DNA of 12,552 nucleotides from a virus: UHGV virus genome UHGV-1671563; one strand, 5' to 3'. The notes beneath the pieces were generated by a model that was not told the origin of the DNA, searched no databases, and saw only the letters and a list, made by a program, of their open reading frames with translations. The translations under genes and the position numbers were made by a program. Below, one piece after another: positions 1-12,552 of this stretch; position 1 is the first letter of the stretch; every line of letters starts with the position of its first letter.

Positions 1-678
1 ATTGTCCAGAAAAGCTGATTTATCCTGGATATCTGCACCGTTCTGATTTTTCGCCAGACGTGAATTTGCGTTGTCATTTGCTGCCTTGACCGCTTTTGGC
101 GTTGCCGCCAGCTTTTCACTGGTGCTGTTTGTTGCACTGCTTAACTGAGTAAAACCTTTTTCTGTCAGCGTGGCGTCAGGATGGCGGCGGGACTGCTCAT
201 GCTCTGCGATTTTGTCATCGACGTAATCCTGCGTCGCCATCACTGTGCTGGCATCAATACTCAGCTCAACGGACGCCACGTTGCTGAGAATAATAACCAT
301 GCGGCAGGTCTGCGCACGCCCGGAGCCTTCAGCGAGTTCAGGCTTATAGCTTTCCGCCATGTTGGCGACCGCAATCAGTGTTCCGGCATCGTCATACAGA
401 CCAAGTTCACGCATCCAGAAGCCGCCCACTTCTGGCGGTACAACCAGTTCAGCCACGATATAGTTTTTATTCTTGTTATCCACGCTGACTTTATTCAGAG
501 CGTGACGCCAGACCTCATGCACCAGTTTCGTCTGACCGGCATCCGGCACCGGCAATTTGCCATTACCGTCACCCACGGCCATTGCAGACAGGTTTACTTT
601 TTTCCCGCCGGGGACAGTGGCGGCTGCCAGCTTTGCGGCTCCGGCAGTAGTGATAACGGTTTTAAATTTCGTGCTCAT
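1..678 (-). CDS. H: Tail fibre protein gpH, N-terminal 226 codons only (5' partial gene; continues beyond window start)
   Basis: ATG at 678..676 (minus) with no in-frame stop down to position 1; absent from the ORF track because it runs off the edge. My translation begins MSTKFKTVITTAGAAKLAAATVPGGKKVNLSAMAVGDGNGKLPVPDAGQTKLVHEVWRHALNKVSVDNKNKNY, which matches my recollection of the P2 gpH N-terminus. Position directly downstream of I fits P2 gene order. Confidence 0.9.
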   Translation of the reverse strand, partial: MSTKFKTVITTAGAAKLAAATVPGGKKVNLSAMAVGDGNGKLPVPDAGQTKLVHEVWRHALNKVSVDNKNKNYIVAELVVPPEVGGFWMRELGLYDDAGTLIAVANMAESYKPELAEGSGRAQTCRMVIILSNVASVELSIDASTVMATQDYVDDKIAEHEQSRRHPDATLTEKGFTQLSSATNSTSEKLAATPKAVKAANDNANSRLAKNQNGADIQDKSAFLDN

Positions 679-688
679 TGTTTCTCAC

Positions 689-1219
689 TTATCCGGGATA
701 AACAGTAATAACATCACCATCACAGACCACACCGCCTGTATACAGATAGCCGGGAATGTCCTGGATAATGTTCAGACCGATAAGGTGGCGACTTGCGGGT
801 TTGGCATCGGCAATCAGCCGTTCCATTTCCAGATACATCTCCTCTGTGATACCGCTTTCCAGCACACCGATATCAAGGCGAAAGGTTCCGGGCGGGTCGT
901 TTGTCTCCCACCATTCCTTTACGTTAATGAGATAGCCGAGCGGCTCCACCACACGCCGGATTGCGCCTATAGTGCCCTTATGGCAGTGAATGAAATACGC
1001 ATCGCGGATAACAGCGCGTTTTGTCGCTTCCGGCCACTTTTCATCCCACCTGTCGACCGAAAACGCCCACGCCAGCCACGGCAGCAGATTTGCCGGACAG
1101 GTGCCCGGGTTCCACAGCTCACGAATACTGACCGGTGTCTTTTCAATTTCCGCACAGGCTTTTGCGGCAGCAACTTCAAGCGGTGATGAGCCGGTCGGCA
1201 GCAGTCGCGAATCACTCAT
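689..1219 (-). CDS. I: Baseplate assembly protein gpI (176 aa)
   Basis: 176-aa ORF, same length and position as P2 gpI between J and H; start overlaps J stop by 8 nt; GGAGG about 10 nt upstream of ATG. Confidence 0.9.
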   Translation of the reverse strand: MSDSRLLPTGSSPLEVAAAKACAEIEKTPVSIRELWNPGTCPANLLPWLAWAFSVDRWDEKWPEATKRAVIRDAYFIHCHKGTIGAIRRVVEPLGYLINVKEWWETNDPPGTFRLDIGVLESGITEEMYLEMERLIADAKPASRHLIGLNIIQDIPGYLYTGGVVCDGDVITVYPG

Positions 1220-2120
1220 CCGAGCCTCCGGTCACGACGCGGTATTCGGTACAGAAAGACGCCTGCGTACTGTTGAGCACGATGTCGGCCAGCGGTGCAG
1301 TCAGTTCGACACGCTGCACGCCTTCCACATGCAAAGCGGCATAAATGGCAGACAGACGGATGTCACGCCCCAGCCGGTGCTGTGCCGTGATATACGCTTC
1401 CAGTTTTTTTACGGCGGCAGCGCGGATGGGTTCGCTTTCGGGACCAGGGTAAAGGTAAAGCGTGGCGTTTATCTGGTATTCAACAATGGCGGCAGACTGC
1501 ACGGTCACGCGGTCGGCCACCGGCCTGACGTCCTCGCCATTAAGGGCATTACGCACCACGGCCAGCAGGTCTTCGGATGCGACACCGTTATTTTCACGTG
1601 ACAGCACGGAGATGGTGACGCAGGCCGGAGACGGACTGGTGACAGAGATATCCGCGACACGCCCGTCGGCACTGCGACCATGATACTGATAGGCACCCAC
1701 CGACCCGGCAACGCTTAAACCTTCAAACGCCTGCTGAATACGCAGACGATAATCCGTGTCAGATTCCATCACTGCCGGTGTCGGCGGGATGGTCGAATCA
1801 TCTGCCGGGGTGATAGTCAGGCGCGTGGTGTTGTAATTGGCACCAATCACATCAAGGTCATTACCGGCGGCACAGGCCAGCATCACCGCCCGTGCGGCCT
1901 CATTCACACGCTGACGCCAGATAAGCTCACGATAAGCGTTTTCTTCCAGCAGTTTGACGAGAGGCTCGGATTCCAGTGTCAGGGTACGGGCGACAGCCTC
2001 CTGCTGGTCTTCCGGGTAAAGGGAAATCAGTGTCGCCTTGCGTTCAGCGAGAATGGTTTCAAAGTCCAGCTCCTCGACCACATCCGGTGCGGGTAGCTGG
2101 TTCAGGTCGATAATCGGCAT
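1212..2120 (-). CDS. J: Baseplate assembly (wedge) protein gpJ (302 aa)
   Basis: 302-aa ORF, length and order match P2 gpJ; begins 5 nt after W stop. Confidence 0.9.
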   Translation of the reverse strand: MPIIDLNQLPAPDVVEELDFETILAERKATLISLYPEDQQEAVARTLTLESEPLVKLLEENAYRELIWRQRVNEAARAVMLACAAGNDLDVIGANYNTTRLTITPADDSTIPPTPAVMESDTDYRLRIQQAFEGLSVAGSVGAYQYHGRSADGRVADISVTSPSPACVTISVLSRENNGVASEDLLAVVRNALNGEDVRPVADRVTVQSAAIVEYQINATLYLYPGPESEPIRAAAVKKLEAYITAQHRLGRDIRLSAIYAALHVEGVQRVELTAPLADIVLNSTQASFCTEYRVVTGGSDE

Positions 2121-2124
2121 GGTT

Positions 2125-2472
2125 TCAACTCACAGGGATGGTTAATGAAAGTGGCTGGCCGGTGTCGTTGTGCTGGCCGGTTAACGTGACCGTCATTCGC
2201 CCGTCAAAACTGCGCGCCGTGGTGACGGATGACAGGGTGACGCGGGGCTCCCATTTCAGTACCGCCATGTAACAGGCGACCTTAATCTGCAACTCAAGCG
2301 CCGGGGTCTGCGGCTGGTCAATCATTGACGCCAGCAACGAGCCGTAATCACGACGCATCACCCGTGAGCCGACCGGCGTGCGCAGGATATCGCCGATACT
2401 CTGGCTGATATGCTCAAGGTCAGTGACCGTCAGGCCATCACTGCGATTCATTCCGAGATAACGCGCTGTCAT
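2125..2472 (-). CDS. W: Baseplate wedge protein gpW (115 aa, T4 gp25-like)
   Basis: 115-aa ORF matching P2 gpW in length and position; start ATG overlaps V stop (ATGA). Confidence 0.9.
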   Translation of the reverse strand: MTARYLGMNRSDGLTVTDLEHISQSIGDILRTPVGSRVMRRDYGSLLASMIDQPQTPALELQIKVACYMAVLKWEPRVTLSSVTTARSFDGRMTVTLTGQHNDTGQPLSLTIPVS

Positions 2473-3104
2473 AAAGGACTCCCGGTTGTGCCGCCGCTGT
2501 CGCCGGGGTGTTTATGGGTATGCAGTACCTTACCGTTTGATGAGAGTTCACCGCCGGTGTGTTCAATGTTGCCGCGCATCGTCCCGCCCTTCTGTACTTC
2601 CAGCGTGCCGGTAATCAGCCTGTTGGTGCAGACCACCTCCGGCGTGTCCAGGGTGATGCGGGTTGATGCTTTCACCATGACCACCGGCACCGTGGCAGTA
2701 ACAGAATCAGAAGCCGTCACGCTGGCCGTTTTAACTCCGCTTACCGTGAGCGCGCTGGTTTCAGGTTCATACTCAATCACCGCCCCGTCAGGGAAACGGA
2801 TATGCAGGGCATCCGCCGACGCAGACGGCGCGGGGTTATCGCCGGAATAAATCCCCGGCAGAACGAACGCCGTGTCGAGTTCACCACCCACGGCCAGAAT
2901 CAGCACCTGTTCCCCCACGGAAGGTGCCCACCATGTGCGCGAACGACCGGCGCGATGGGTCAGCCACTGAAGCCAGTCGGTGCACATGCCGCCGGTCTGC
3001 ACACGGCAGCGACCGGCATTAAGGTCGGTTTCGACGATAATGCCGGTGCGGATCATGTTGCGCAGTGCGCGCGCGAGTTCCTGAATATTTGCGAGAGTGT
3101 TCAT
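2469..3104 (-). CDS. V: Baseplate spike/assembly protein gpV (211 aa)
   Basis: 211-aa ORF, length and position match P2 gpV; first gene after the 66-bp S-V spacer, consistent with being first gene of the V-W-J-I-H transcription unit. Confidence 0.9.
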   Translation of the reverse strand: MNTLANIQELARALRNMIRTGIIVETDLNAGRCRVQTGGMCTDWLQWLTHRAGRSRTWWAPSVGEQVLILAVGGELDTAFVLPGIYSGDNPAPSASADALHIRFPDGAVIEYEPETSALTVSGVKTASVTASDSVTATVPVVMVKASTRITLDTPEVVCTNRLITGTLEVQKGGTMRGNIEHTGGELSSNGKVLHTHKHPGDSGGTTGSPL

Positions 3105-3170
3105 AACGGGAAGGATGCCGCCGGGTCATACCGGCGGCAATGTGACGATGAGGTGTCAGGAATGGCACAA
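3105..3170 (-). promoter_or_regulatory. S-V intergenic spacer; expected location of the Ogr-dependent late promoter for V (P2 PV) and V leader
   Basis: Only non-coding gap in the tail gene block; in P2 a late promoter lies upstream of V. Exact -10/-35 and activator site not resolved by eye. Confidence 0.45.
3116..3139. repeat. Perfect 9-bp inverted repeat TGCCGCCGG-N6-CCGGCGGCA (GC-rich hairpin or palindromic protein site) 12-35 nt upstream of V start
   Basis: Read directly: 3116..3124 tgccgccgg, spacer gtcata, 3131..3139 ccggcggca is its exact reverse complement. No U-tract follows on either strand. Confidence 0.85.
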
Positions 3171-3623
3171 CTAACGGTCGAGGTGAGCCAGGATAATCTC
3201 TTCAATCATCTGCACATCCTCACCGGTAAAGCCGAGCAGAGGACGCGTCGGATAATCAATTTTCTTACCGTCTTTCCGGGTTTCTTCCGACAGACCGAAC
3301 TGATGCACACTGGCGATTTTCGGTGACTTTCCGCCGTAAAACTCCATTGATGCCTGTTCCGGGCTGGCGCGGATATGCAAAAAACGACTGGTGATAAGTT
3401 TCGCAAACATTTTTCGCTTAACACGACCGGTCTTTTTTCTGGCGCTCTGCTGCTGGCGTGGTGCGTAGGGTGTGCCGTCCGGGGCTTTCTGTGCCATCAC
3501 CCGGCGCTGCTGACTCTGCCGCAGGCGCTTCGCCAGTTCGGCACTCAGTCGCCGACGCCCTGACGGTGACAGCGACTCAATCAGTCCGGTCAGCCGGTCT
3601 TCAAAACGCTTAAACTCATTCAT
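3171..3623 (-). CDS. S: Tail completion protein gpS (150 aa)
   Basis: 150-aa ORF matching P2 gpS length and order; start overlaps R stop by 8 nt. Confidence 0.9.
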   Translation of the reverse strand: MNEFKRFEDRLTGLIESLSPSGRRRLSAELAKRLRQSQQRRVMAQKAPDGTPYAPRQQQSARKKTGRVKRKMFAKLITSRFLHIRASPEQASMEFYGGKSPKIASVHQFGLSEETRKDGKKIDYPTRPLLGFTGEDVQMIEEIILAHLDR

Positions 3624-4083
3624 CCCACTTGCTCACCAGTTCGCCATTGATATAAAGCTCCATCGGGCGGATGACCGGCTCCGGCGGCGGAGGTTCCGGG
3701 ATATTCTTCACATGCAGTGCGCCGTCCACCTCACTGACCAGCGTGCGCTCGGTCAGCATCAGGCTGATGCTGATATCAAAGCTGCTGTCATTGTTGATGT
3801 CCGCATAAAACGTGAAGCCCTTTTTCTGGCCTTCGTCGGTGGTCATGATGTCGGGCTGATTTTCCCGCAGCCACGCCAGCACCGGCACGATGAGCAGGTC
3901 AAAATCACCGGTAAAGTCGGTCACAATGACATTGAGCGTGTAACGCTTTTCGAATGACAGCGACGTCGCCAGCGTGGAGGCAATACTCCCGTTATCCACG
4001 AATATCCGCAGCATATCGGGGTTAGTTTTCAGCACCGTGACGGCATCAGTCAGCGCCCTGCGCAGGCTGTCGGGTTTGAGCAT
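3616..4083 (-). CDS. R: Tail completion protein gpR (155 aa)
   Basis: 155-aa ORF matching P2 gpR length and order, immediately after the lysis genes. Confidence 0.9.
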   Translation of the reverse strand: MLKPDSLRRALTDAVTVLKTNPDMLRIFVDNGSIASTLATSLSFEKRYTLNVIVTDFTGDFDLLIVPVLAWLRENQPDIMTTDEGQKKGFTFYADINNDSSFDISISLMLTERTLVSEVDGALHVKNIPEPPPPEPVIRPMELYINGELVSKWDE

Positions 4084-4336
4084 CGTTTTCGTCCTGACAG
4101 TGTTTAATCATTTTTACCTGGCTGGCACAGCGCGCCAGCGCGTTCTCAAGCTGCCGGATATCGGCACTTAAATCACCGTTCGTCTCCGGGTCGCTGCCCG
4201 GCATCGGGCAAAGACTCACTTTCGGGCAGGCGTTGTGGACAATCACTGGCGTCGGTGCAGGCGGGGCGCTGGTGCAACCGGCGCACAGCATCAGGCAGGT
4301 CAGCACCGTACCAGCGGCGAAAATCTTCGTTTTCAT
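4046..4336 (-). CDS. lysC: Outer-membrane lipoprotein spanin LysC (Rz1-like o-spanin, 96 aa), embedded out of frame in lysB 3' end and R 5' end
   Basis: 96-aa ORF in alternate frame; N-terminal signal with cysteine lipobox region (TCLMLCAGC) followed by a proline-rich stretch (SAPPAPTPV), typical of Rz1-type spanins; same length and embedded arrangement as P2 LysC. Confidence 0.8.
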   Translation of the reverse strand: MKTKIFAAGTVLTCLMLCAGCTSAPPAPTPVIVHNACPKVSLCPMPGSDPETNGDLSADIRQLENALARCASQVKMIKHCQDENDAQTRQPAQGAD

Positions 4337-4616
4337 TCAGTAACCTCGTGATGGTTTTCTCGCGCTGTGCTTCACGCTTCGCGGCGTTCTCCAGTTCCTG
4401 ACGCAGTGCCACCTGCGCCAGCTCGTTTTTGTCTGCCCTGGTGAGGGCAACATGAAGCTGATTTTTCAGCATGGTGATGGTCGTCTGCTGTTCACTGGCG
4501 ACGTTGTTCGCCCTGTCCAGCGAAGCGCGCAGGCTGGCATTTTTGTGTTTCACCAGAAACAGACCGGACACCGCCAGCGATAACAACACGACCAGCACAA
4601 TCATCAGCTTTGACAT
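4173..4616 (-). CDS. lysB: Inner-membrane spanin LysB (Rz-like i-spanin, 147 aa from first ATG; 143 aa if the start is the Met at 4604..4602)
   Basis: N-terminal transmembrane helix (MIVLVVLLSLAVSGLFLV) followed by a charged, probably coiled-coil region; position after lysA as in P2. The first ATG overlaps the lysA 3' end by 13 nt; the second Met overlaps the lysA stop as TGATG. Confidence 0.85.
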   Translation of the reverse strand: MSKLMIVLVVLLSLAVSGLFLVKHKNASLRASLDRANNVASEQQTTITMLKNQLHVALTRADKNELAQVALRQELENAAKREAQREKTITRLLNENEDFRRWYGADLPDAVRRLHQRPACTDASDCPQRLPESESLPDAGQRPGDER

Positions 4617-5029
4617 GGTTCCCGCCCCTCAAGACGCTGACGGCAGGCCGTACATATCAGCCGGAAGAACACCGATGCCACGAGATAAATCAGCGCGGTA
4701 AAAATCCACCCGGCAGCGACCAGCGAGATAAACGTCGCCACCATCACTACCAGAGCCGCCGCCCGTCTGCGCCACGGCACCGGCTGCAAAAACAGCGACG
4801 TGACAATCTTCACGGCCAGCGATTCCGGCGGCAGCTCCCGCCCGTAGCGTTCCAGTACATACTCCGTGGCATACACGCCGACACCACCGGCAACCACACA
4901 GATAACCGTCGCCAGAATCGCCCAGGCAGCGACAAAACTGACGGCCACGCTCTGCGGGTAAATCAGGGACAGTGCCAGCATCAGCGCCAGCGACACGTTC
5001 AGCATCAGTGAAAGGGATAATTTCTTCAT
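4604..5029 (-). CDS. lysA: Lysis timing/antiholin-like membrane protein LysA (141 aa)
   Basis: 141-aa ORF, strongly hydrophobic with about 4 predicted TM segments; length and position identical to P2 LysA; GGAG RBS in the 14-bp K-lysA gap. Confidence 0.85.
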   Translation of the reverse strand: MKKLSLSLMLNVSLALMLALSLIYPQSVAVSFVAAWAILATVICVVAGGVGVYATEYVLERYGRELPPESLAVKIVTSLFLQPVPWRRRAAALVVMVATFISLVAAGWIFTALIYLVASVFFRLICTACRQRLEGREPCQS

Positions 5030-5043
5030 GGTGTTGACTCCGT

Positions 5044-5541
5044 TTAAGCCGGTACGCCGCCAGCGGTACGCCAGACGGTGACCAGTTTTTCCAGTGAATG
5101 CTCACGCTGACCGTAACCGGCTCCCGGCAGGGACGCCCAGATATTGCGACAGCGTGAAATGGCGCGCTCAATGCGTCCCGCCCGGATGTCATCCAGTGCA
5201 CCGCGTTCGCGGATCAACTGAATGGCGAGTCTGTCCTGTGACAACGGACTGAAATCCGGCAGGGCAAGCTGTTTGCGGTAGTGCGGCCAGAACAGGTAAA
5301 GCTGCTGATAGCGACCGGAGGCCGTGGATTTTTCACCGCGACGGTTAAACACCTTCGCCGGTCGGCCATGTGCGAACGGGTGGTCACTGTAGTCGGTGAA
5401 AATTTCCGGCTTTCCGTCCAGTCCGGTGACTATCACGTCATAGCCCCGGTTTTTCGTCAGCGGATGGTTCGCCGTCCCTTCGGACACGGCCAGCATGTCG
5501 AGAAAGGCGGCGATATTCTGATGCGTGTTAATTACCGGCAT
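5044..5541 (-). CDS. K: Endolysin gpK, phage lambda R-family lysozyme/lytic transglycosylase (165 aa)
   Basis: Shares motifs with lambda R as I recall it: FLDMLAVSEGT (catalytic Glu), GYDVIV, FTDYSDHP, GRYQ, YRKQL, DFSP, NIWASLPGAGYGQ. 165 aa as in P2 gpK; start overlaps Y stop (TAATG). Confidence 0.95.
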   Translation of the reverse strand: MPVINTHQNIAAFLDMLAVSEGTANHPLTKNRGYDVIVTGLDGKPEIFTDYSDHPFAHGRPAKVFNRRGEKSTASGRYQQLYLFWPHYRKQLALPDFSPLSQDRLAIQLIRERGALDDIRAGRIERAISRCRNIWASLPGAGYGQREHSLEKLVTVWRTAGGVPA

Positions 5542-5822
5542 TACGGTTTCCCCCTGCCCTTAAAGCGGCGCTGAATGGCAATCTCAATCACCTGATAACC
5601 GGCGATACCCAGCATGGAGCCGATGCCGCACACCGCAGGCAGTGACAGGTCAGGAAACTGCACCAGAACAACACCGGCAACCATCGAGACAAAACCACCG
5701 AGCAACATGCGCCCGATAAACAGACGCGGGGTGATGGGTTCACCACCGGCAAGCACCTTGCCGACAACAATCAGCACCCCAATCATGAAAAGCGACAGGA
5801 CGCTTTTTTCTTCTGCTGTCAT
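5541..5822 (-). CDS. Y: Holin gpY (93 aa)
   Basis: 93-aa ORF with hydrophobic TM segments and a basic C-terminal tail (RRFKGRGKP); immediately upstream of the endolysin; same length as P2 gpY. Confidence 0.9.
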   Translation of the reverse strand: MTAEEKSVLSLFMIGVLIVVGKVLAGGEPITPRLFIGRMLLGGFVSMVAGVVLVQFPDLSLPAVCGIGSMLGIAGYQVIEIAIQRRFKGRGKP

Positions 5823-5825
5823 GCG

Positions 5826-6029
5826 TTACTCCCACAGATTGACAGTTTCAGCCACGGGCGCGGTCTGAACGTCGGGCAGTTCGACGGCGGTGCCATGTGG
5901 CAGCACCGCCCCCAGTTCAGCCAGTCCCGAATTTGCGGCGAGCACGGTCTCAACCACGCCCTCAGTGCGCCCGTAATACCGGACACAAATGGCGTCGAGC
6001 GTGTCGCCCTGTAGCGCAAAGGTCTTCAT
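5826..6029 (-). CDS. X: Essential tail protein gpX (67 aa, LysM-like)
   Basis: ORF track shows a 90-aa frame; the internal Met giving MKTFALQGDTLDAICVRYYGRTEGVVETVLAAN... yields 67 aa as in P2 gpX, and that ATG overlaps the L stop (ATGA). Confidence 0.9.
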   Translation of the reverse strand: MKTFALQGDTLDAICVRYYGRTEGVVETVLAANSGLAELGAVLPHGTAVELPDVQTAPVAETVNLWE

Positions 6030-6538
6030 CAGATTTGACTCACGATGCAGCGCGGCTTGCCCTGGATGCGCGCCACCGCCCAGCGCATATCCCGCCACAG
6101 CTCATCAATGGTGCTGTCAATGCTGTCGGCCTTCTTGTCGCCTTTCGCACTGGCATCCACGCCGCGATAACGCTCATAAAGCGACGCGGTCGCCATCGCA
6201 CACACGGCGCGCTCGTAGTAAAAAACTTTGATGCTTTCACCGTCGATGTCGTCCGCCGGAACGTCCGCCAGACACGTAAAACCGGCGGCAATTTTCTGTT
6301 CGCGGTATTCGTACAGCTCCGCATTCGTCTCCGCCATGCCTGACTTGATGGCCTCACGCAGACGGGCGGGGGCGACGGTCTGCTCAAGGCGCATACGTTC
6401 CCGGACGCGCTTCGGGTCGATATCGGGAAAAAAGAACGTGTTTTTAATCACCGGCTCGTCGCCTGCCGGTTGCGGGATGACCACCGTCCCCTCACCGGAC
6501 ACGGGAGCCTCCTTTCGCGGAATAATCAGCGTCATCAT
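6029..6538 (-). CDS. L: Head completion/stabilisation protein gpL (169 aa)
   Basis: ORF track frame is 189 aa; start assigned to the tandem Met (MMTLIIPRKEAPVSG...) at 6538..6536, which has a GAGG RBS upstream and gives 169 aa as in P2 gpL. Confidence 0.9.
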   Translation of the reverse strand: MMTLIIPRKEAPVSGEGTVVIPQPAGDEPVIKNTFFFPDIDPKRVRERMRLEQTVAPARLREAIKSGMAETNAELYEYREQKIAAGFTCLADVPADDIDGESIKVFYYERAVCAMATASLYERYRGVDASAKGDKKADSIDSTIDELWRDMRWAVARIQGKPRCIVSQI

Positions 6539-6637
6539 GACTACCTCTGAAAAGTCGGGCGGTGGACGCCGGTGCAGTGTCAGGTGATTCACCCTCACTG
6601 ACCGGCGTGCCGCCCTGGCGCGGGGCGCATTCGGTTG

Positions 6638-7381
6638 TTAACTGGCTTTCTTTTTCGGGCGTCCACGTTTTGCCGGTGTCACGCTCCGGGTCTTACGCGG
6701 GGCGCTGGTGACCGCTTTTGGCTGCGGCTCCGGCTTCGGTTTCAGCTCCCGCTCCAGTCGTTCAATCTCTTTTTTGACGCCTGCCTGACAGTCGAGCTGT
6801 GTCGCACGTTGCAGGTGAGCCAGCGCACCGGCGGCATCACCAGCGTCACGCAGAAACAGACCGGTGATTTTGTGCAGCTTTGCGCGCACTTCATCAGGCA
6901 TGTCTGCCGTGGCGGTCAGTGCAAGGGTCTCCGTCAGCAGGCGGGTATCCACGGATTCACCGGCAGCGTGGGCACGCATGGCCGCGAGCGCCACTTCCTC
7001 GGTGAACATGTACGGCGGGGTGCGGCGGTGTTTACCCGGCATGGTCAGACCGTACTTCAGGGCATAACGGGCAATCTCCAGCGCACCGGCAATATCGCCG
7101 GTATCCAGACGCCACAGCATGACCGTCATCAGAATGTCATCCTGTGCACCTTTGCCCTGCTCCAGCACGCCGTTCACCCACGGCAACCAGAACGGCAGCA
7201 GTTCGCGCTTTTTCGCGGCCTTCAGCTCTTTTGAATAAATCGCTTTCAGTGTGCGCTGGTCTGCGGCGAGCTTAACCAGCATCTGCTCATAGACAGTTGC
7301 ATGTCGCAGCGGGGCGGCTTCCCGCTGCGCGGTCATCGCTGCCGAGACCCGCATCATGTGGCGCTGTGCGGGACTCGTCAT
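6638..7381 (-). CDS. M: Terminase small (endonuclease/DNA-recognition) subunit gpM (247 aa)
   Basis: 247-aa ORF with lysine/arginine-rich C-terminus; length and position match P2 gpM; GGGAG RBS; begins 3 nt after N stop. Confidence 0.9.
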   Translation of the reverse strand: MTSPAQRHMMRVSAAMTAQREAAPLRHATVYEQMLVKLAADQRTLKAIYSKELKAAKKRELLPFWLPWVNGVLEQGKGAQDDILMTVMLWRLDTGDIAGALEIARYALKYGLTMPGKHRRTPPYMFTEEVALAAMRAHAAGESVDTRLLTETLALTATADMPDEVRAKLHKITGLFLRDAGDAAGALAHLQRATQLDCQAGVKKEIERLERELKPKPEPQPKAVTSAPRKTRSVTPAKRGRPKKKAS

Positions 7382-7384
7382 CGG

Positions 7385-8458
7385 TTACGCTCCCGGCTCT
7401 GCGGTCGCCTTAGCCGGTGTGGAGAAATCACCGACCTTAATTTTTTCCACCAGACAACCGGCGGCGTAGTCTTCCACCACGTAATCAATGTTCATTGACT
7501 CGTAGTTCTCCACGCGGTCGAGTTTCGGGTTTTCCACAATCACGCGGCGATGGCTGTCATCCATGTAGTAGATGGACAGGTTTTCCAGCTTCGTGATGAG
7601 CATCGCATCCGCCGGGAAGTACGGGACGCGTACCGCCGGCAGGTTACCGATGCGTTTCTGGCTGATGATGACGTCAGCGGCCAGCATTTCGCTGTTGTCC
7701 TGCTCCTTGTTGACGATGGGGAAATACTTGTCCGCCAGTAGCTGACGCCCTACAATCACCACAAGGTCAGGGTCTTCCTGATACCACGGCTCAATCAGGT
7801 TGTTGGTCGCATCCATCACCAGTGCATCGAGGCTGGCATAATCACCGCCCTTACCCACGCGGATGACCTCAGAGGTCGTGTGACCTTCCTCGTCAGTAAC
7901 CTTGCTCATCACGCGCGCCGGGGCTTCATTGCGGTATTTCTGCAGCCAGCCGACCGCCACATCCTGCAGCATCGGGTTACTGCTGCGGTCAGAGGTTTCG
8001 GCACGCTTCACGCCGTTAAAACCGGCCATGATTAAATCAAGGGACTGGCGTTTGATAATGGCGTTACGGACACGGAGCTGGAAATCCTGATAACGCGCCC
8101 ACAGGTCCAGCGTTTTGTAGCGGATATAAAAATCGAAGTTAATCTGGTCGCATTCGTACTTGTTTGACGCCAGCTTCGAGAAGTCCTTCGGCTGACGCTC
8201 GGTGCCACCGGCGGTGTCGGTGGTGCTGGCGATGGAGCCGGTGACACCGATGCCAATTTTTTCCCCTTTCATTTCGCTGACCGGCACAATGTTGATGCGG
8301 GTCAGAAAGTCAGAGGACTCCTGCATGGTGTTCATCAGGGTCTGGGTGACCGACGGTTCAACGGTGAATTTTTTCGACACATCACCGGCGTCGATGCCGT
8401 TCAGTTCGGCAACACGGGACAGGTAGGCATTAAATTTAAAGCGGGTTTCCTGGCGCAT
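7385..8458 (-). CDS. N: Major capsid protein gpN precursor (357 aa)
   Basis: 357-aa ORF equal to P2 gpN in length, between O and M; AGGA RBS upstream. Confidence 0.95.
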   Translation of the reverse strand: MRQETRFKFNAYLSRVAELNGIDAGDVSKKFTVEPSVTQTLMNTMQESSDFLTRINIVPVSEMKGEKIGIGVTGSIASTTDTAGGTERQPKDFSKLASNKYECDQINFDFYIRYKTLDLWARYQDFQLRVRNAIIKRQSLDLIMAGFNGVKRAETSDRSSNPMLQDVAVGWLQKYRNEAPARVMSKVTDEEGHTTSEVIRVGKGGDYASLDALVMDATNNLIEPWYQEDPDLVVIVGRQLLADKYFPIVNKEQDNSEMLAADVIISQKRIGNLPAVRVPYFPADAMLITKLENLSIYYMDDSHRRVIVENPKLDRVENYESMNIDYVVEDYAAGCLVEKIKVGDFSTPAKATAEPGA

Positions 8459-8516
8459 AGTTTTTCCTGAAATTAAGGGTTAATCGTGAAGGTTTTCCCG
8501 GACTGACTGACGCCGG

Positions 8517-9371
8517 TCAGCAGTTCGTCATCAGGGCGTCACCGCCACCACCGGTGGCCTTGCTGCGGCGCTGCTGGGTCAGACTTTCGGTGTTGTCGAG
8601 ACTGTTTTTCAGGCGGGTGAATGCCTGGCTGGTTTCATCCGCCCTGTCAGTCACCTCCTGCTTAAGAGCGGAAAAGGCAGTTTCCATCTCAGCGAGGCGC
8701 TGCTCAGTGGCGCTCAGTTTTTCCTGCACATGTTCAGCAACAGCGGTCACCGCTTCATGCACGTCATTCAGACGGGCGTCATCGCTGGCCTGTTTGCGGC
8801 CAAAAATGGATTTCACCTTTTCGGTCAGGGCGGTGAACACGGTTTCAGGCAGGTCTTCAAATTCCAGCTCAACAGGCGTTGCCACTGAAATCAGGTTTTC
8901 AGGGCTTAATTTGAAGCGGTTCAGGGGGTTGTGTTTTGCCGTGCGGCAGAATTCCAGGTATTCCGTGCCGAGGCTTGCCGGGTCATCTGTGACGGCCAGC
9001 CCTACCAGATAACATTTGCCGGTGTTGGCAAAGTTCGGCTGAATTTCCATTGAGGTGTAGACCTTCTGCGCGGCCTTGTTCATCGCGATAAGGTCATCGG
9101 TCGGGGTGATTTTCGCAAACAGCGCCCATTTGCCTTTCAGCGCCGAATCATCGTCAATCTTTTCGGCCTTCAGTTCGACCACATCGCCATAACGCTTAAA
9201 AATACCGTCAGGCAGAATGCCGCGCAGATGTTCCAGGTTAATGCGGCAACCATAGACTCGCGGGTCAAAGGTTTCGGCCATTTCCTGAATATCCTGCGCA
9301 CTGATGACACGCCCGTCACAGGTGTCACCCTCAACGCCGATACGAAAGAATTTTGAGACTTTTTTTGCCAT
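8517..9371 (-). CDS. O: Capsid scaffolding protein gpO (284 aa; in P2 this protein also has maturation protease activity)
   Basis: ORF track frame is 306 aa; start assigned to the internal Met (MAKKVSKFFRIGVEGDTCDGRV...) at 9371..9369, giving 284 aa as in P2 gpO; first gene of the minus-strand late operon. Confidence 0.9.
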   Translation of the reverse strand: MAKKVSKFFRIGVEGDTCDGRVISAQDIQEMAETFDPRVYGCRINLEHLRGILPDGIFKRYGDVVELKAEKIDDDSALKGKWALFAKITPTDDLIAMNKAAQKVYTSMEIQPNFANTGKCYLVGLAVTDDPASLGTEYLEFCRTAKHNPLNRFKLSPENLISVATPVELEFEDLPETVFTALTEKVKSIFGRKQASDDARLNDVHEAVTAVAEHVQEKLSATEQRLAEMETAFSALKQEVTDRADETSQAFTRLKNSLDNTESLTQQRRSKATGGGGDALMTNC

Positions 9372-9544
9372 TGTCAGGAGTCCTGAATAGTGATTAGAGG
9401 AGTCACATGTCGGCATCAGTTTCCCGACGATGCGCATCCTCCGCCATCAGTCCCGGATGGCTTATCACTGACACAACAGCACCTTAGCGAATCGCGGGAC
9501 GCGACTCAGTAGCCTTGCCGTGTATTCATCACGGCGAGGTATTC
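9372..9544. promoter_or_regulatory. O/P divergent intergenic control region (expected divergent late promoters, P2 PO and PP, activated by Ogr-type zinc-finger activator)
   Basis: 173-bp non-coding region between divergently oriented O and P starts. Contains short dyads read by eye (CAGGA-g-TCCTG 9375..9385; GTGA-N9-TCAC 9390..9406; GTCGG-N10-CCGAC 9409..9428; CCATC-N7-GATGG 9444..9460). Promoter elements not resolved precisely. Confidence 0.5.
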
Positions 9545-11317
9545 ATGACCATCACCACAGACACCACTCTTTTACACGACCCGCGTCGTCAGGCGGCGCT
9601 GCTGTACTGGCAGGGGTTTTCCGTGCCGCAGATTGCCGCCATGTTGCAGATGAAACGCCCGACGGTGCAGAGCTGGAAACAGCGCGACGGCTGGGACAGC
9701 GTTGCCCCCATCAGCCGTGTCGAAATGAGTCTGGAAGCGCGGCTGACCCAGCTCATCATCAAACCGCAGAAAACCGGCGGTGACTTCAAGGAAATTGACC
9801 TGCTGGGACGCCAGATTGAACGACTGGCACGGGTAAACCGTTACAGTCAGACCGGCAACGAGGCAGACCTTAATCCGAACGTCGCTAACCGCAACAAAGG
9901 CGGGCGCCGCAAACCGAAAAAGAATTTTTTCAGTGACGAGGCCATCGAAAAGCTGGAGCAGATTTTCTTTGAGCAGTCTTTTGAATATCAGTTGCACTGG
10001 TATCGCGCCGGGCTTGAGCACCGCATCCGCGATATCCTGAAATCCCGCCAGATTGGCGCGACGTTTTATTTTTCCCGCGAGGCGCTGCTGCGCGCCCTGA
10101 AAACCGGTCATAACCAGATTTTTCTGTCGGCCAGTAAAACGCAGGCGTATGTGTTCCGCGAATACATCATCGCCTTTGCCCGTCTGGTTGACGTTGACCT
10201 GACCGGTGACCCGATTGTCCTGGGCAATAACGGCGCAAAACTGATTTTTCTCGGCACCAACTCCAACACCGCACAGAGCCATAACGGCGACCTGTACGTC
10301 GACGAGATTTTCTGGATCCCGAATTTTCAGGTACTGCGTAAGGTGGCATCAGGTATGGCCTCACAGAGTCACCTGCGCTCGACCTATTTCTCCACCCCGT
10401 CCACGCTGGCGCACGACGCCTACCCGTTCTGGTCGGGGGAACTGTTTAACCGGGGACGCGCCAGCGCCGCTGAACGCGTGGAAATCGACGTCAGTCATAA
10501 CGCCCTTGCCGGTGGGCTTCTCTGTGCGGACGGCCAGTGGCGGCAGATTGTCACCATTGAGGACGCGCTGAAAGGCGGCTGCACGCTGTTCGACATTGAG
10601 CAGCTCAAACGCGAAAACAGCGCCGACGATTTTAAAAACCTGTTCATGTGTGAATTTGTTGACGACAAGGCATCGGTGTTCCCGTTCGAGGAGCTGCAAC
10701 GCTGCATGGTCGACACGCTGGAAGAATGGGAAGACTATGCGCCGTTTGCCGCCAATCCGTTCGGCTCCCGACCGGTATGGATTGGTTACGACCCGTCACA
10801 CCGTGGCGACAGCGCCGGATGCGTGGTACTGGCACCGCCGGTGGTGGCCGGTGGCAAATTCAGAATACTTGAGCGTCACCAGTGGAAAGGCATGGACTTT
10901 GCCACCCAGGCAGAATCCATCCGCAAACTCACCGAAAAATACAACGTCGAATACATCGGTATTGATGCCACCGGACTCGGTGTCGGCGTGTTCCAGCTCG
11001 TGCGCTCGTTCTATCCCGCCGCGCGCGATATCCGCTACACGCCGGAAATGAAAACCGCAATGGTGCTCAAGGCAAAAGACGTCATCCGCCGTGGCTGTCT
11101 GGAATATGACGTCAGCGCCACCGACATCACCAGCTCGTTTATGGCTATCCGCAAGACCATGACCAGCAGCGGACGCAGCGCCACCTATGAGGCCAGCCGC
11201 AGCGAGGAAGCCAGCCACGCCGACCTCGCCTGGGCGACCATGCACGCCCTGTTAAATGAGCCACTCACCGCCGGTATCAGCACCCCGCTGACATCCACCA
11301 TTCTGGAGTTTTACTGA
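9545..11317 (+). CDS. P: Terminase large (ATPase/nuclease) subunit gpP (590 aa)
   Basis: ORF track frame is 600 aa; start assigned to the ATG at 9545 (MTITTDTTLLHDPRR..., GAGG RBS 8-11 nt upstream), giving 590 aa as in P2 gpP. Contains a lambda gpA-like deviant Walker A (KSRQIGAT) and a Walker B-like DLYVDE. Confidence 0.95.
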   Translation: MTITTDTTLLHDPRRQAALLYWQGFSVPQIAAMLQMKRPTVQSWKQRDGWDSVAPISRVEMSLEARLTQLIIKPQKTGGDFKEIDLLGRQIERLARVNRYSQTGNEADLNPNVANRNKGGRRKPKKNFFSDEAIEKLEQIFFEQSFEYQLHWYRAGLEHRIRDILKSRQIGATFYFSREALLRALKTGHNQIFLSASKTQAYVFREYIIAFARLVDVDLTGDPIVLGNNGAKLIFLGTNSNTAQSHNGDLYVDEIFWIPNFQVLRKVASGMASQSHLRSTYFSTPSTLAHDAYPFWSGELFNRGRASAAERVEIDVSHNALAGGLLCADGQWRQIVTIEDALKGGCTLFDIEQLKRENSADDFKNLFMCEFVDDKASVFPFEELQRCMVDTLEEWEDYAPFAANPFGSRPVWIGYDPSHRGDSAGCVVLAPPVVAGGKFRILERHQWKGMDFATQAESIRKLTEKYNVEYIGIDATGLGVGVFQLVRSFYPAARDIRYTPEMKTAMVLKAKDVIRRGCLEYDVSATDITSSFMAIRKTMTSSGRSATYEASRSEEASHADLAWATMHALLNEPLTAGISTPLTSTILEFY

Positions 11318-12351
11318 TGAGCAAGAAAAAAGGGAAAACACCGCAGCCAGCGGTGAAAACAATGACCGCCAGCGCCCCGAAAATGGAGGCATTCACCTTT
11401 GGTGAGCCGGTGCCGGTACTCGACCGCCGTGACATTCTGGATTACGTCGAGTGCATCAGTAACGGCAGATGGTATGAGCCACCGGTCAGCTTTACCGGTC
11501 TGGCAAAAAGCCTGCGTGCTGCCGTGCATCACAGCTCACCGATTTACGTCAAACGTAATATTCTGGCTTCAACGTTTATCCCGCACCCGTGGCTGTCCCA
11601 GCAGGATTTCAGCCGCTTTGTGCTGGATTTTCTGGTATTTGGTAATGCGTTTCTGGAAAAGCGTTACAGCACCACCGGTAAGGTCATCAGACTGGAAACC
11701 TCACCGGCAAAATATACCCGCCGTGGCGTGGAAGAGGATGTTTACTGGTGGGTGCCGTCCTTCCATGAGCCGACACCTTTCGCGCCCGGCTCCGTGTTTC
11801 ACCTGCTGGAGCCGGATATTAATCAGGAGCTGTACGGCCTGCCGGAATATCTCAGCGCCCTTAACTCTGCCTGGCTGAATGAGTCGGCCACGCTGTTCCG
11901 CCGCAAGTATTACGAAAATGGCGCACATGCCGGATACATCATGTACGTCACCGATGCCGTGCAGGATCGCAACGATATCGAAATGCTCCGCGAAAACATG
12001 GTGAAGTCGAAAGGCCGCAACAACTTTAAAAATCTGTTTCTCTATGCCCCACAGGGGAAAGCCGACGGCATTAAAATTATCCCCCTCAGTGAAGTGGCGA
12101 CGAAGGACGATTTTTTTAATATCAAAAAAGCCAGCGCCACTGACCTGCTGGACGCGCACCGCATCCCCTTTCAGTTGATGGGCGGCAAGCCGGAGAACGT
12201 CGGGTCGCTGGGTGATATTGAGAAAGTGGCAAAGGTCTTTGTCCGCAATGAGCTTATCCCGTTACAGGACAGGATTCGGGAAATAAACGACTGGCTCGGT
12301 CAGGAGGTCATCCGCTTTAAAAACTACTCACTGGACACTGACAACGGCTGA
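11317..12351 (+). CDS. Q: Portal protein gpQ (344 aa)
   Basis: 344-aa ORF (MSKKKGKTPQPAVKTMTASAPKMEAFTFGEPVPVLDRRDILDYVE...) equal to P2 gpQ in length; start overlaps P stop (TGATG); last gene before cos as in P2. Confidence 0.95.
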   Translation: MSKKKGKTPQPAVKTMTASAPKMEAFTFGEPVPVLDRRDILDYVECISNGRWYEPPVSFTGLAKSLRAAVHHSSPIYVKRNILASTFIPHPWLSQQDFSRFVLDFLVFGNAFLEKRYSTTGKVIRLETSPAKYTRRGVEEDVYWWVPSFHEPTPFAPGSVFHLLEPDINQELYGLPEYLSALNSAWLNESATLFRRKYYENGAHAGYIMYVTDAVQDRNDIEMLRENMVKSKGRNNFKNLFLYAPQGKADGIKIIPLSEVATKDDFFNIKKASATDLLDAHRIPFQLMGGKPENVGSLGDIEKVAKVFVRNELIPLQDRIREINDWLGQEVIRFKNYSLDTDNG

Positions 12352-12355
12352 ACAT

Positions 12356-12378
12356 CGCCGCCTGCGGGCGGCTTTTTT
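12356..12378 (+). terminator. Rho-independent terminator after Q
   Basis: GC stem GCCGCC (12357..12362), loop TGCG, stem GGCGGC (12367..12372), followed by six T (12373..12378), starting 5 nt after the Q stop codon. Confidence 0.75.
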
Positions 12379-12520
12379 ACACCCCGTCATCACGCCCTCA
12401 CACGCTCATCACCGCACAAAAAATCCCGCAGACACACCAACGCCCCAGCAGGCCAAGTAAACGCCTTCACGACGCGCTCAGACGCTGAAAAAATAAAATC
12501 AGCACCACCGCCAGCGCGCA

Positions 12521-12539
12521 GTGCTTTCCCCGCCTCGCC
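12521..12539. other. cosN: P2-type 19-nt cohesive-end site (reverse complement of GGCGAGGCGGGGAAAGCAC)
   Basis: Window reads gtgctttccccgcctcgcc at 12521..12539, the reverse complement of the P2 left cohesive end as I recall it. The distance to the Q stop (about 190 bp) fits the P2 left-end layout. Confidence 0.7.
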
Positions 12540-12552
12540 CGCCCGCTTCATG

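Follow-up and report, generated by a model that had tools for sequence, protein, structure and literature searches.

A P2-type cos site at the broken end of a metagenome contig, and ATGCA boxes at fixed positions in the right arm of its relatives

Positions 12352..12552 of the stretch of DNA analysed here (UHGV virus genome UHGV-1671563; 12,552 nt, called the window in the following) can be assigned with high confidence to the 3' tail of the P–Q operon of a P2-like phage (Peduovirus). They comprise the terminator tQ, a spacer and the left part of cos, and are broken off by the assembly at +13, counted from the first base after the cohesive-end sequence. The window is a complete metagenome contig (ENA ERZ1303593, NODE_3317; coverage 4.19x), and the element that it represents is most likely an E. 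coli prophage. In its relatives, the right arm of cos carries the pentamer ATGCA at fixed distances from the cleavage site, and these boxes are probably part of the packaging signal. The coordinates of all features are collected in Table 1.

Table 1. Features of the window around cos, and loci of the ATGCA boxes in related elements.
Feature	Position	Strand	Remarks
gpM	6638..7381	-	Predicted terminase role; encoded in the window along with gpP
gpP, terminase large (ATPase) subunit, 590 aa	9545..11317	+	First gene of the P–Q late operon
gpQ, portal protein, 344 aa	11317..12351	+	From the ORF list; Pfam Phage_portal; labelled portal in P2 and in numerous Peduovirus records
tQ, intrinsic terminator of the P–Q operon	12357..12378	+	GCCGCC-TGCG-GGCGGC, then TTTTTT
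Non-coding tQ–cos spacer	12379..12520	.	Kept among P2-like phages (column conservation, 47 non-redundant relatives)
Weak terminator-like hairpin, followed by T-rich run	12502..12517	-	Terminator scan; adjoins cos
19-nt cohesive-end sequence of P2 cos (GGCGAGGCGGGGAAAGCAC)	12521..12539	-	Exact match; identical to cosL/cosR
First 13 nt of right arm (CGCCCGCTTCATG)	12540..12552	.	Part of the 55-bp cos core
ATGCA boxes, L002	7959+12..7959+109 (+25..+122)		
ATGCA boxes, P2 (L005)	~33450..33550		
ATGCA boxes, P4 (L126)	~11500..11600		
ATGCA boxes, further loci (L127, L129, L130, L131)			

Knowledge of the P2 cos site goes back to the 1970s–1990s. P2 terminase (gpM plus gpP) recognises the site on circular or joined DNA and nicks both strands 19 nt apart, which yields the 5'-protruding cohesive ends of virion DNA; packaging proceeds from monomeric circles. 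A pattern search that allowed up to three mismatches found the 19-mer at a single site in the window, with no mismatch. None of 200 dinucleotide-preserving shuffles of the window matched it even with three mismatches, by which a chance origin is ruled out. The 19-mer is identical to both cosL (1..19) and cosR (33575..33593) of the P2 reference NC_001895, and the reverse complement of window positions 12291..12552 aligns over its full length with the circular junction of P2. Positions 11300..12552 are covered to at least 80% by 88 records of the phage collection, and the linear Peduovirus records P24B2, HQ103, P37 and P2 OU784549 have a terminus at the base that matches position 12539. This base is the expected virion end as judged from the records of relatives, not from the window element itself. 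A P2-type cos in the window is confirmed and nothing speaks against the identification; the cohesive-end sequence which a sequence-only reading had placed here is the exact one of P2. Terminase would be expected to set staggered nicks at both borders of the 19-mer.

Left of cos, the window shares with NC_001895 the order of cosL, tQ (160..181 in P2) and Q (187..1221). The gene for gpP was called at 8229..10001 of L003, the 11236 nt from the ERZ1303593 contig that are 100% identical to window positions 1317..12552; its product has the domains Terminase_5, Terminase_6N and Terminase_6C, and RefSeq names the homologue in E. coli EC18 'terminase ATPase subunit family protein'. The hairpin of tQ (12357..12372), as revealed by a terminator scan, has six G–C pairs and a loop of four with a T run after it, and the window tQ aligns without mismatch to that of P2. 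The 19-mer starts 170 nt past the Q stop codon and 142 nt past tQ, so that its earlier description as lying immediately after Q and the terminator is loose but acceptable. No promoter-like sites were found in 12200..12552, and no Rfam family reached the gathering threshold anywhere in the window.

The same scan, in which G–T pairs were allowed, recorded the minus-strand hairpin at 12502..12517. Only three of its six pairs are G–C, the rest being G–T, and it is a weak match to the terminator consensus, kept only as such. It is oriented from the right arm towards the 3' end of Q; with its three G–C pairs, this putative element might block read-through across joined cos ends.

The open reading frames of the window reproduce the P2 late module with its map order reversed: the minus strand carries H (cut), I, J, W, V, S, R, lysC, lysB, lysA, K, Y, X, L, M, N and O, the plus strand P and Q. 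The gap between S and V (3105..3170) measures only 66 nt. In P2 this place is taken by the non-essential orf30 (9439..10224), so the window has no accessory insert of the orf30 type there. None was seen elsewhere in the window, which consists of conserved late genes only, without accessory cargo, and from which nothing novel can be extracted.

After the 19-mer, 13 nt remain (12552 - 12539 = 13), which carry the 5' half of a CGCCC...GGGCG hairpin. Eleven of the 13 agree with the terminal bases of the right arm in P2. All 13 agree with the right arm that is most frequent in relatives, though for the first 11 this holds by construction because the 30-mer used for the search included them; more than 120 IMG/VR contigs with this 30-mer across cos are the basis of the right-arm comparison. 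Since right-arm bases are joined to the 19-mer, the DNA appears to be in a joined form, that is, a prophage, a circle or a concatemer, as read from very few bases (just the 13 nt crossing cos). The earlier proposal of an integrated or circular form agrees with bases that run across cos into the opposite arm; a concatemer is a further joined form. That the DNA beyond 12552 corresponds to the opposite genome end is likewise borne out by the agreement of the terminal bases with the P2-family right arm.

A '55-bp core' of P2 cos is attributed to Ziermann & Calendar (1990) in PMC5694545 and PMC9594776. It consists of a few left bases, the 19-mer and about 30–36 nt of right arm, of which the window has +1..+13 only. 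A complete core was not found in the window, since it is cut by the contig end, and a cut of this kind does not exclude the element from the P2-family (Peduoviridae) cos. In relatives, the right arm goes on as GGGGCGGTTTTAATGCAGTTGCAT and is kept for ~36 nt (CGCCCGCTTCATGGGGCGGTTTTAATGCAGTTGCAT); at ~+37, ~24 nt past the end of the window, they become unrelated. Positions +12..+16 are polymorphic inside the conserved core. The most variable of them is +14, which is G, T, A or C depending on the relative. The statement that the window ends 13 bp past cos has to be corrected: the core runs to ~+36 and the boxes described below to ~+122, so the window stops inside cos.

The stop at +13 is an assembly break and not a biological end. 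An exact look-up of the Q protein gave three contigs, among them NODE_3317_length_12552_cov_4.193086, which has the length of the window. As the window is a whole contig, its right end is an assembly end, past which this assembly offers no extension. Its left end sits in the variable part of the tail-fibre gene H, where the E. coli relatives EC18 and SF-088 cease to be homologous 38 nt to the left of position 1. L004, an independent assembly of a 99.6% relative, spans the window-equivalent positions 875..12505 and is thus broken near both of these places. A fork in the assembly graph, caused by mixed P2-like variants, would end a contig where variable segments begin, with the 4.2x coverage contributing. 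Such a fork is most likely the cause of the break; the evidence is indirect, and 4.2x alone could suffice. With coverage this low, plain dropout at +13 might indeed account for the end, with a single prophage, unassembled cargo and no part played by sequence variation. We consider this possible but doubtful, as the left end lies only those 38 nt from the loss of homology, the right end directly before the four-way position +14, and L004 breaks at both places as well.

The contig might alternatively end where linear virion DNA was cut at cos. Many phage records begin exactly at cos, and two independent assemblies stop within ~35 nt of it (the window at +13 and L004 at 12505). However, a virion end, once filled in, would reach only to 12539, whereas the window adds bases of the opposite (right) arm, and the left contig end inside gene H is no genome end. 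With its last 13 bases coming from the opposite arm, the contig is very unlikely to end at a virion terminus, and we hold to a break at a graph fork. Both contig ends together with the breaks of L004 suggest that P2-like variants with a common backbone were co-assembled.

The right arm of relatives contains the pentamer ATGCA at +25, +97, +107 and +118 (+118/119), with a main spacing of 10 nt. Among 47 non-redundant relatives it was present at +24..26 in 45, at +96..98 in 37, at +106..109 in 33 and at +116..121 in 21. At least two boxes fell into the interval +94..+122 in 38 of the 47, compared with none of the 47 in each of eight control windows of the same size. Between the boxes, from +37 to +95, the sequence is free and the length constant. 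P2, 186, P4, a Klebsiella peduovirus, Erwinia ENT90 and Ralstonia RSY1 all show this layout, and RSY1 does so despite a different 19-mer. All boxes lie beyond the contig end, and the window contains none.

A function of the boxes as promoter or operator of the cargo was rejected. Their distance to cos is constant whatever the cargo or its orientation. In P4, the box-bearing arm abuts the 3' end of psu, and cos separates this arm from the defence hotspot (PMC9122126). The P4 arrangement indicates that the boxes go with cos and not with the cargo, and they are probably part of the packaging signal. They are possibly bound by gpM, the small terminase subunit. A broader proposal, by analogy with lambda, would make the boxes a second part of the packaging signal, recognised by gpM in the manner of cosB/cosQ, and in addition the inner border of the hotspot and a homology anchor; as a whole we rate it as rather unlikely. 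If it were true, the boxes would fix the inner border of the defence hotspot and serve as a homology anchor for cargo swaps. Longer cos flanks improve transduction of P2/P4 cosmids (PMC9594776), for which the boxes may account. The accessible literature, which does not include the original of Ziermann & Calendar (1990), describes the 55-bp core only and makes no mention of ATGCA boxes.

The sharing of cos by P2 and P4 raises the question whether the site in the window belongs to a P4-like satellite or another hitchhiking element with the same cos, in which case the neighbouring DNA would be that of the satellite. The P4 19-mer is identical and its core is common to ~+35. Left of the 19-mer, P4 agrees for only ~7 nt (GCGCGCA), these being the sole part of the tQ–cos spacer present at its left end. 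Moreover, the window joins cos to the whole P2 late module (H' to Q) in one contig and is 99% identical to P2-like prophages of E. coli. Unless the contig is chimeric, a satellite origin is thus extremely improbable, which leaves the assignment to a P2-like prophage. Of 5426 complete E. coli genomes, 1466 cover at least 80% of the window; no identical copy was found among them, the best reaching 99.1%.

According to the relatives, the missing DNA would contain, in this order, the rest of the cos signal, a cargo cassette of 0.9–5.7 kb and gene A. We surveyed 84 loci which share the cos 30-mer and are complete between cos and the C-terminal end of gpA, a distance of 901 to 5682 nt. The loci fall into 47 unrelated clusters of cargo DNA, and their gpA proteins are 86–100% identical. 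The cargo encodes 129 ORFs of at least 70 aa, which group into 94 protein families. The largest protein had a PADLOC match in 28 of the 45 clusters scanned. The models matched were REase_II, Old, IetS, Hp2, ShosT, PD-Lambda-5_A and relatives, NsnA/PD-T4-2_A, AbiP2 reverse transcriptase, retron RT type VI, HerA, SIR2, HNH, LmuA-like (PDC-M48B), LmuB and AriA/PtuA-like ATPase, together with the candidate families PDC-S06, S15, S25, S28, S39, S64 and PDC-M18A. No match for the largest protein was obtained in 17 of the 45 clusters, that is, in about a third of the cargo types near the same cos.

The commonest type, C1, comprises nine loci (L011 among them) with an interval of 901..995 nt and two ORFs of 76 and 81 aa, neither of which matched a Pfam or PADLOC model. 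Such a locus may represent a hotspot that is almost empty, or a small uncharacterised module. Type C26 (locus L077), one of the 47, contains old, tin and orf91 as in P2. A 313-aa protein (L081:11221-12159, minus strand; homologues in L119 and L076) is encoded by the first gene past cos in types C5, C28 and C46, and gave no Pfam or PADLOC match. Beside gpA, nine of the 47 types encode a 162-aa protein with DUF3850/ASCH and DUF7415 domains (L103:136-621, plus strand), which is related to P2 orf91. As it is found there in some elements only, the border of the hotspot on the gpA side is variable too.

The sequence-only reading had expected the variable accessory end of P2-like genomes next to the window. 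In the biology of the relatives this holds, but the window copy stops at a contig end, one of the outcomes which that reading had itself named as a refutation; the cargo of this copy can be deduced from relatives only. Its further remarks on the region agree with our data: tin and old are both annotated in NC_001895, where the other genome end reads A, orf91, tin, old, and P2-like prophages do carry diverse anti-phage cargo there, with the 47 types mostly defence-related. The cos-proximal defence hotspot is already published (2006–2022), and our survey reproduces the published picture. Rousset et al. 2022 (PMC9122126) counted 18,150 occurrences of the cos-proximal gpA–gpQ locus with 1,650 gene arrangements, and cite Odegrip (2006) for an earlier suggestion of the hotspot. 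In 186-like prophages, cos-adjacent DNA was reported to be replaced by retrons (Dodd & Egan 1996, as listed in PMC5694545), and elements with identical core genes often differ in their defences (2026 NAR study, PMC13586616).

The two closest relatives that continue past cos, L002 and E. coli EC18, are 99.1–99.75% identical to the window. L002, a 35-kb human-gut contig, is 99.56% identical over 7959 nt and encodes an identical Q protein; EC18 is 99.13% identical over all 12552 nt. In both, cos is followed by the genes for a 652-aa protein (plus strand) and a 349-aa protein (minus strand), and then gpA. The 652-aa protein matched PADLOC REase_II (2e-91) and Pfam HATPase_c_3, and the 349-aa protein PADLOC MTase_II (2e-88) and DrmMII as well as Pfam DNA_methylase. 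RefSeq calls them 'BbrUII/HgiDII family restriction enzyme' and 'DNA cytosine methyltransferase', respectively, and the phage record PhiR44_1 labels the same pair ParaMORC3 and Dcm. The pair was found in L002, EC18, L021 and L068, and its proteins recur unchanged in dozens of genomes.

Our best guess for the cargo of the window element is therefore a predicted type II restriction–modification pair, consisting of a GHKL-ATPase enzyme of the BbrUII/HgiDII family and a C5-cytosine methyltransferase. Over the last 1200 nt before cos, only L002 and EC18 are more than 99% identical to the window; the next full-length matches reach at most 97.3% and have many different cassettes. The guess is a weak one, since the cassette swaps between 99% and 98% relatives: in SF-088, 98% identical over the whole window, the products are a protein with a ParB-N domain, a hypothetical protein, a cytosine methyltransferase and a DUF3850 protein. 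It is further weakened by the numbers in complete E. coli genomes, where the cassette is present in 30 of the 5426, always with at least 99% identity, against the 1466 that contain most of the window. A 99% and a 98% relative also differ at a second P2 hotspot outside the window (the Z/fun position between the tail-fibre assembly gene G and the sheath gene FI), which encodes a 'lysogenic conversion protein' in L001 (8597..9190) and an unrelated hypothetical protein in L128 (2975..3754).

Among known systems, lambda cos (cosN, cosB with its R-sites, cosQ) offers a possible parallel to the boxes in the phased short repeats that flank its nicking site at helical-turn spacing. The two differ in that lambda cos has no sequence similarity to P2 cos and that P2 packages monomeric circles. 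Phage 186 (U32222) has the right-arm core and the ATGCA boxes in common with P2-like relatives, and its 19-mer is presumably near-identical to that of P2. P4 (X51522) shares the 19-mer, the right-arm core and the boxes, and diverges left of the 19-mer after the few common bases given above. With P2 itself, the relatives have the order of cos, cargo and gpA in common, the hotspot lying outside the window; P2 carries old and tin there, in contrast to the type II restriction–modification pair of the nearest relatives. The cos of P2 is complete, whereas the window has its left part only, joined to the right-arm bases of which 11 are equal. The 19-mer is identical in both and is placed downstream of Q and tQ in the same way, and the 200 nt from Q to cos are ~90% identical, differing by a few substitutions and two 1-nt indels in the spacer.
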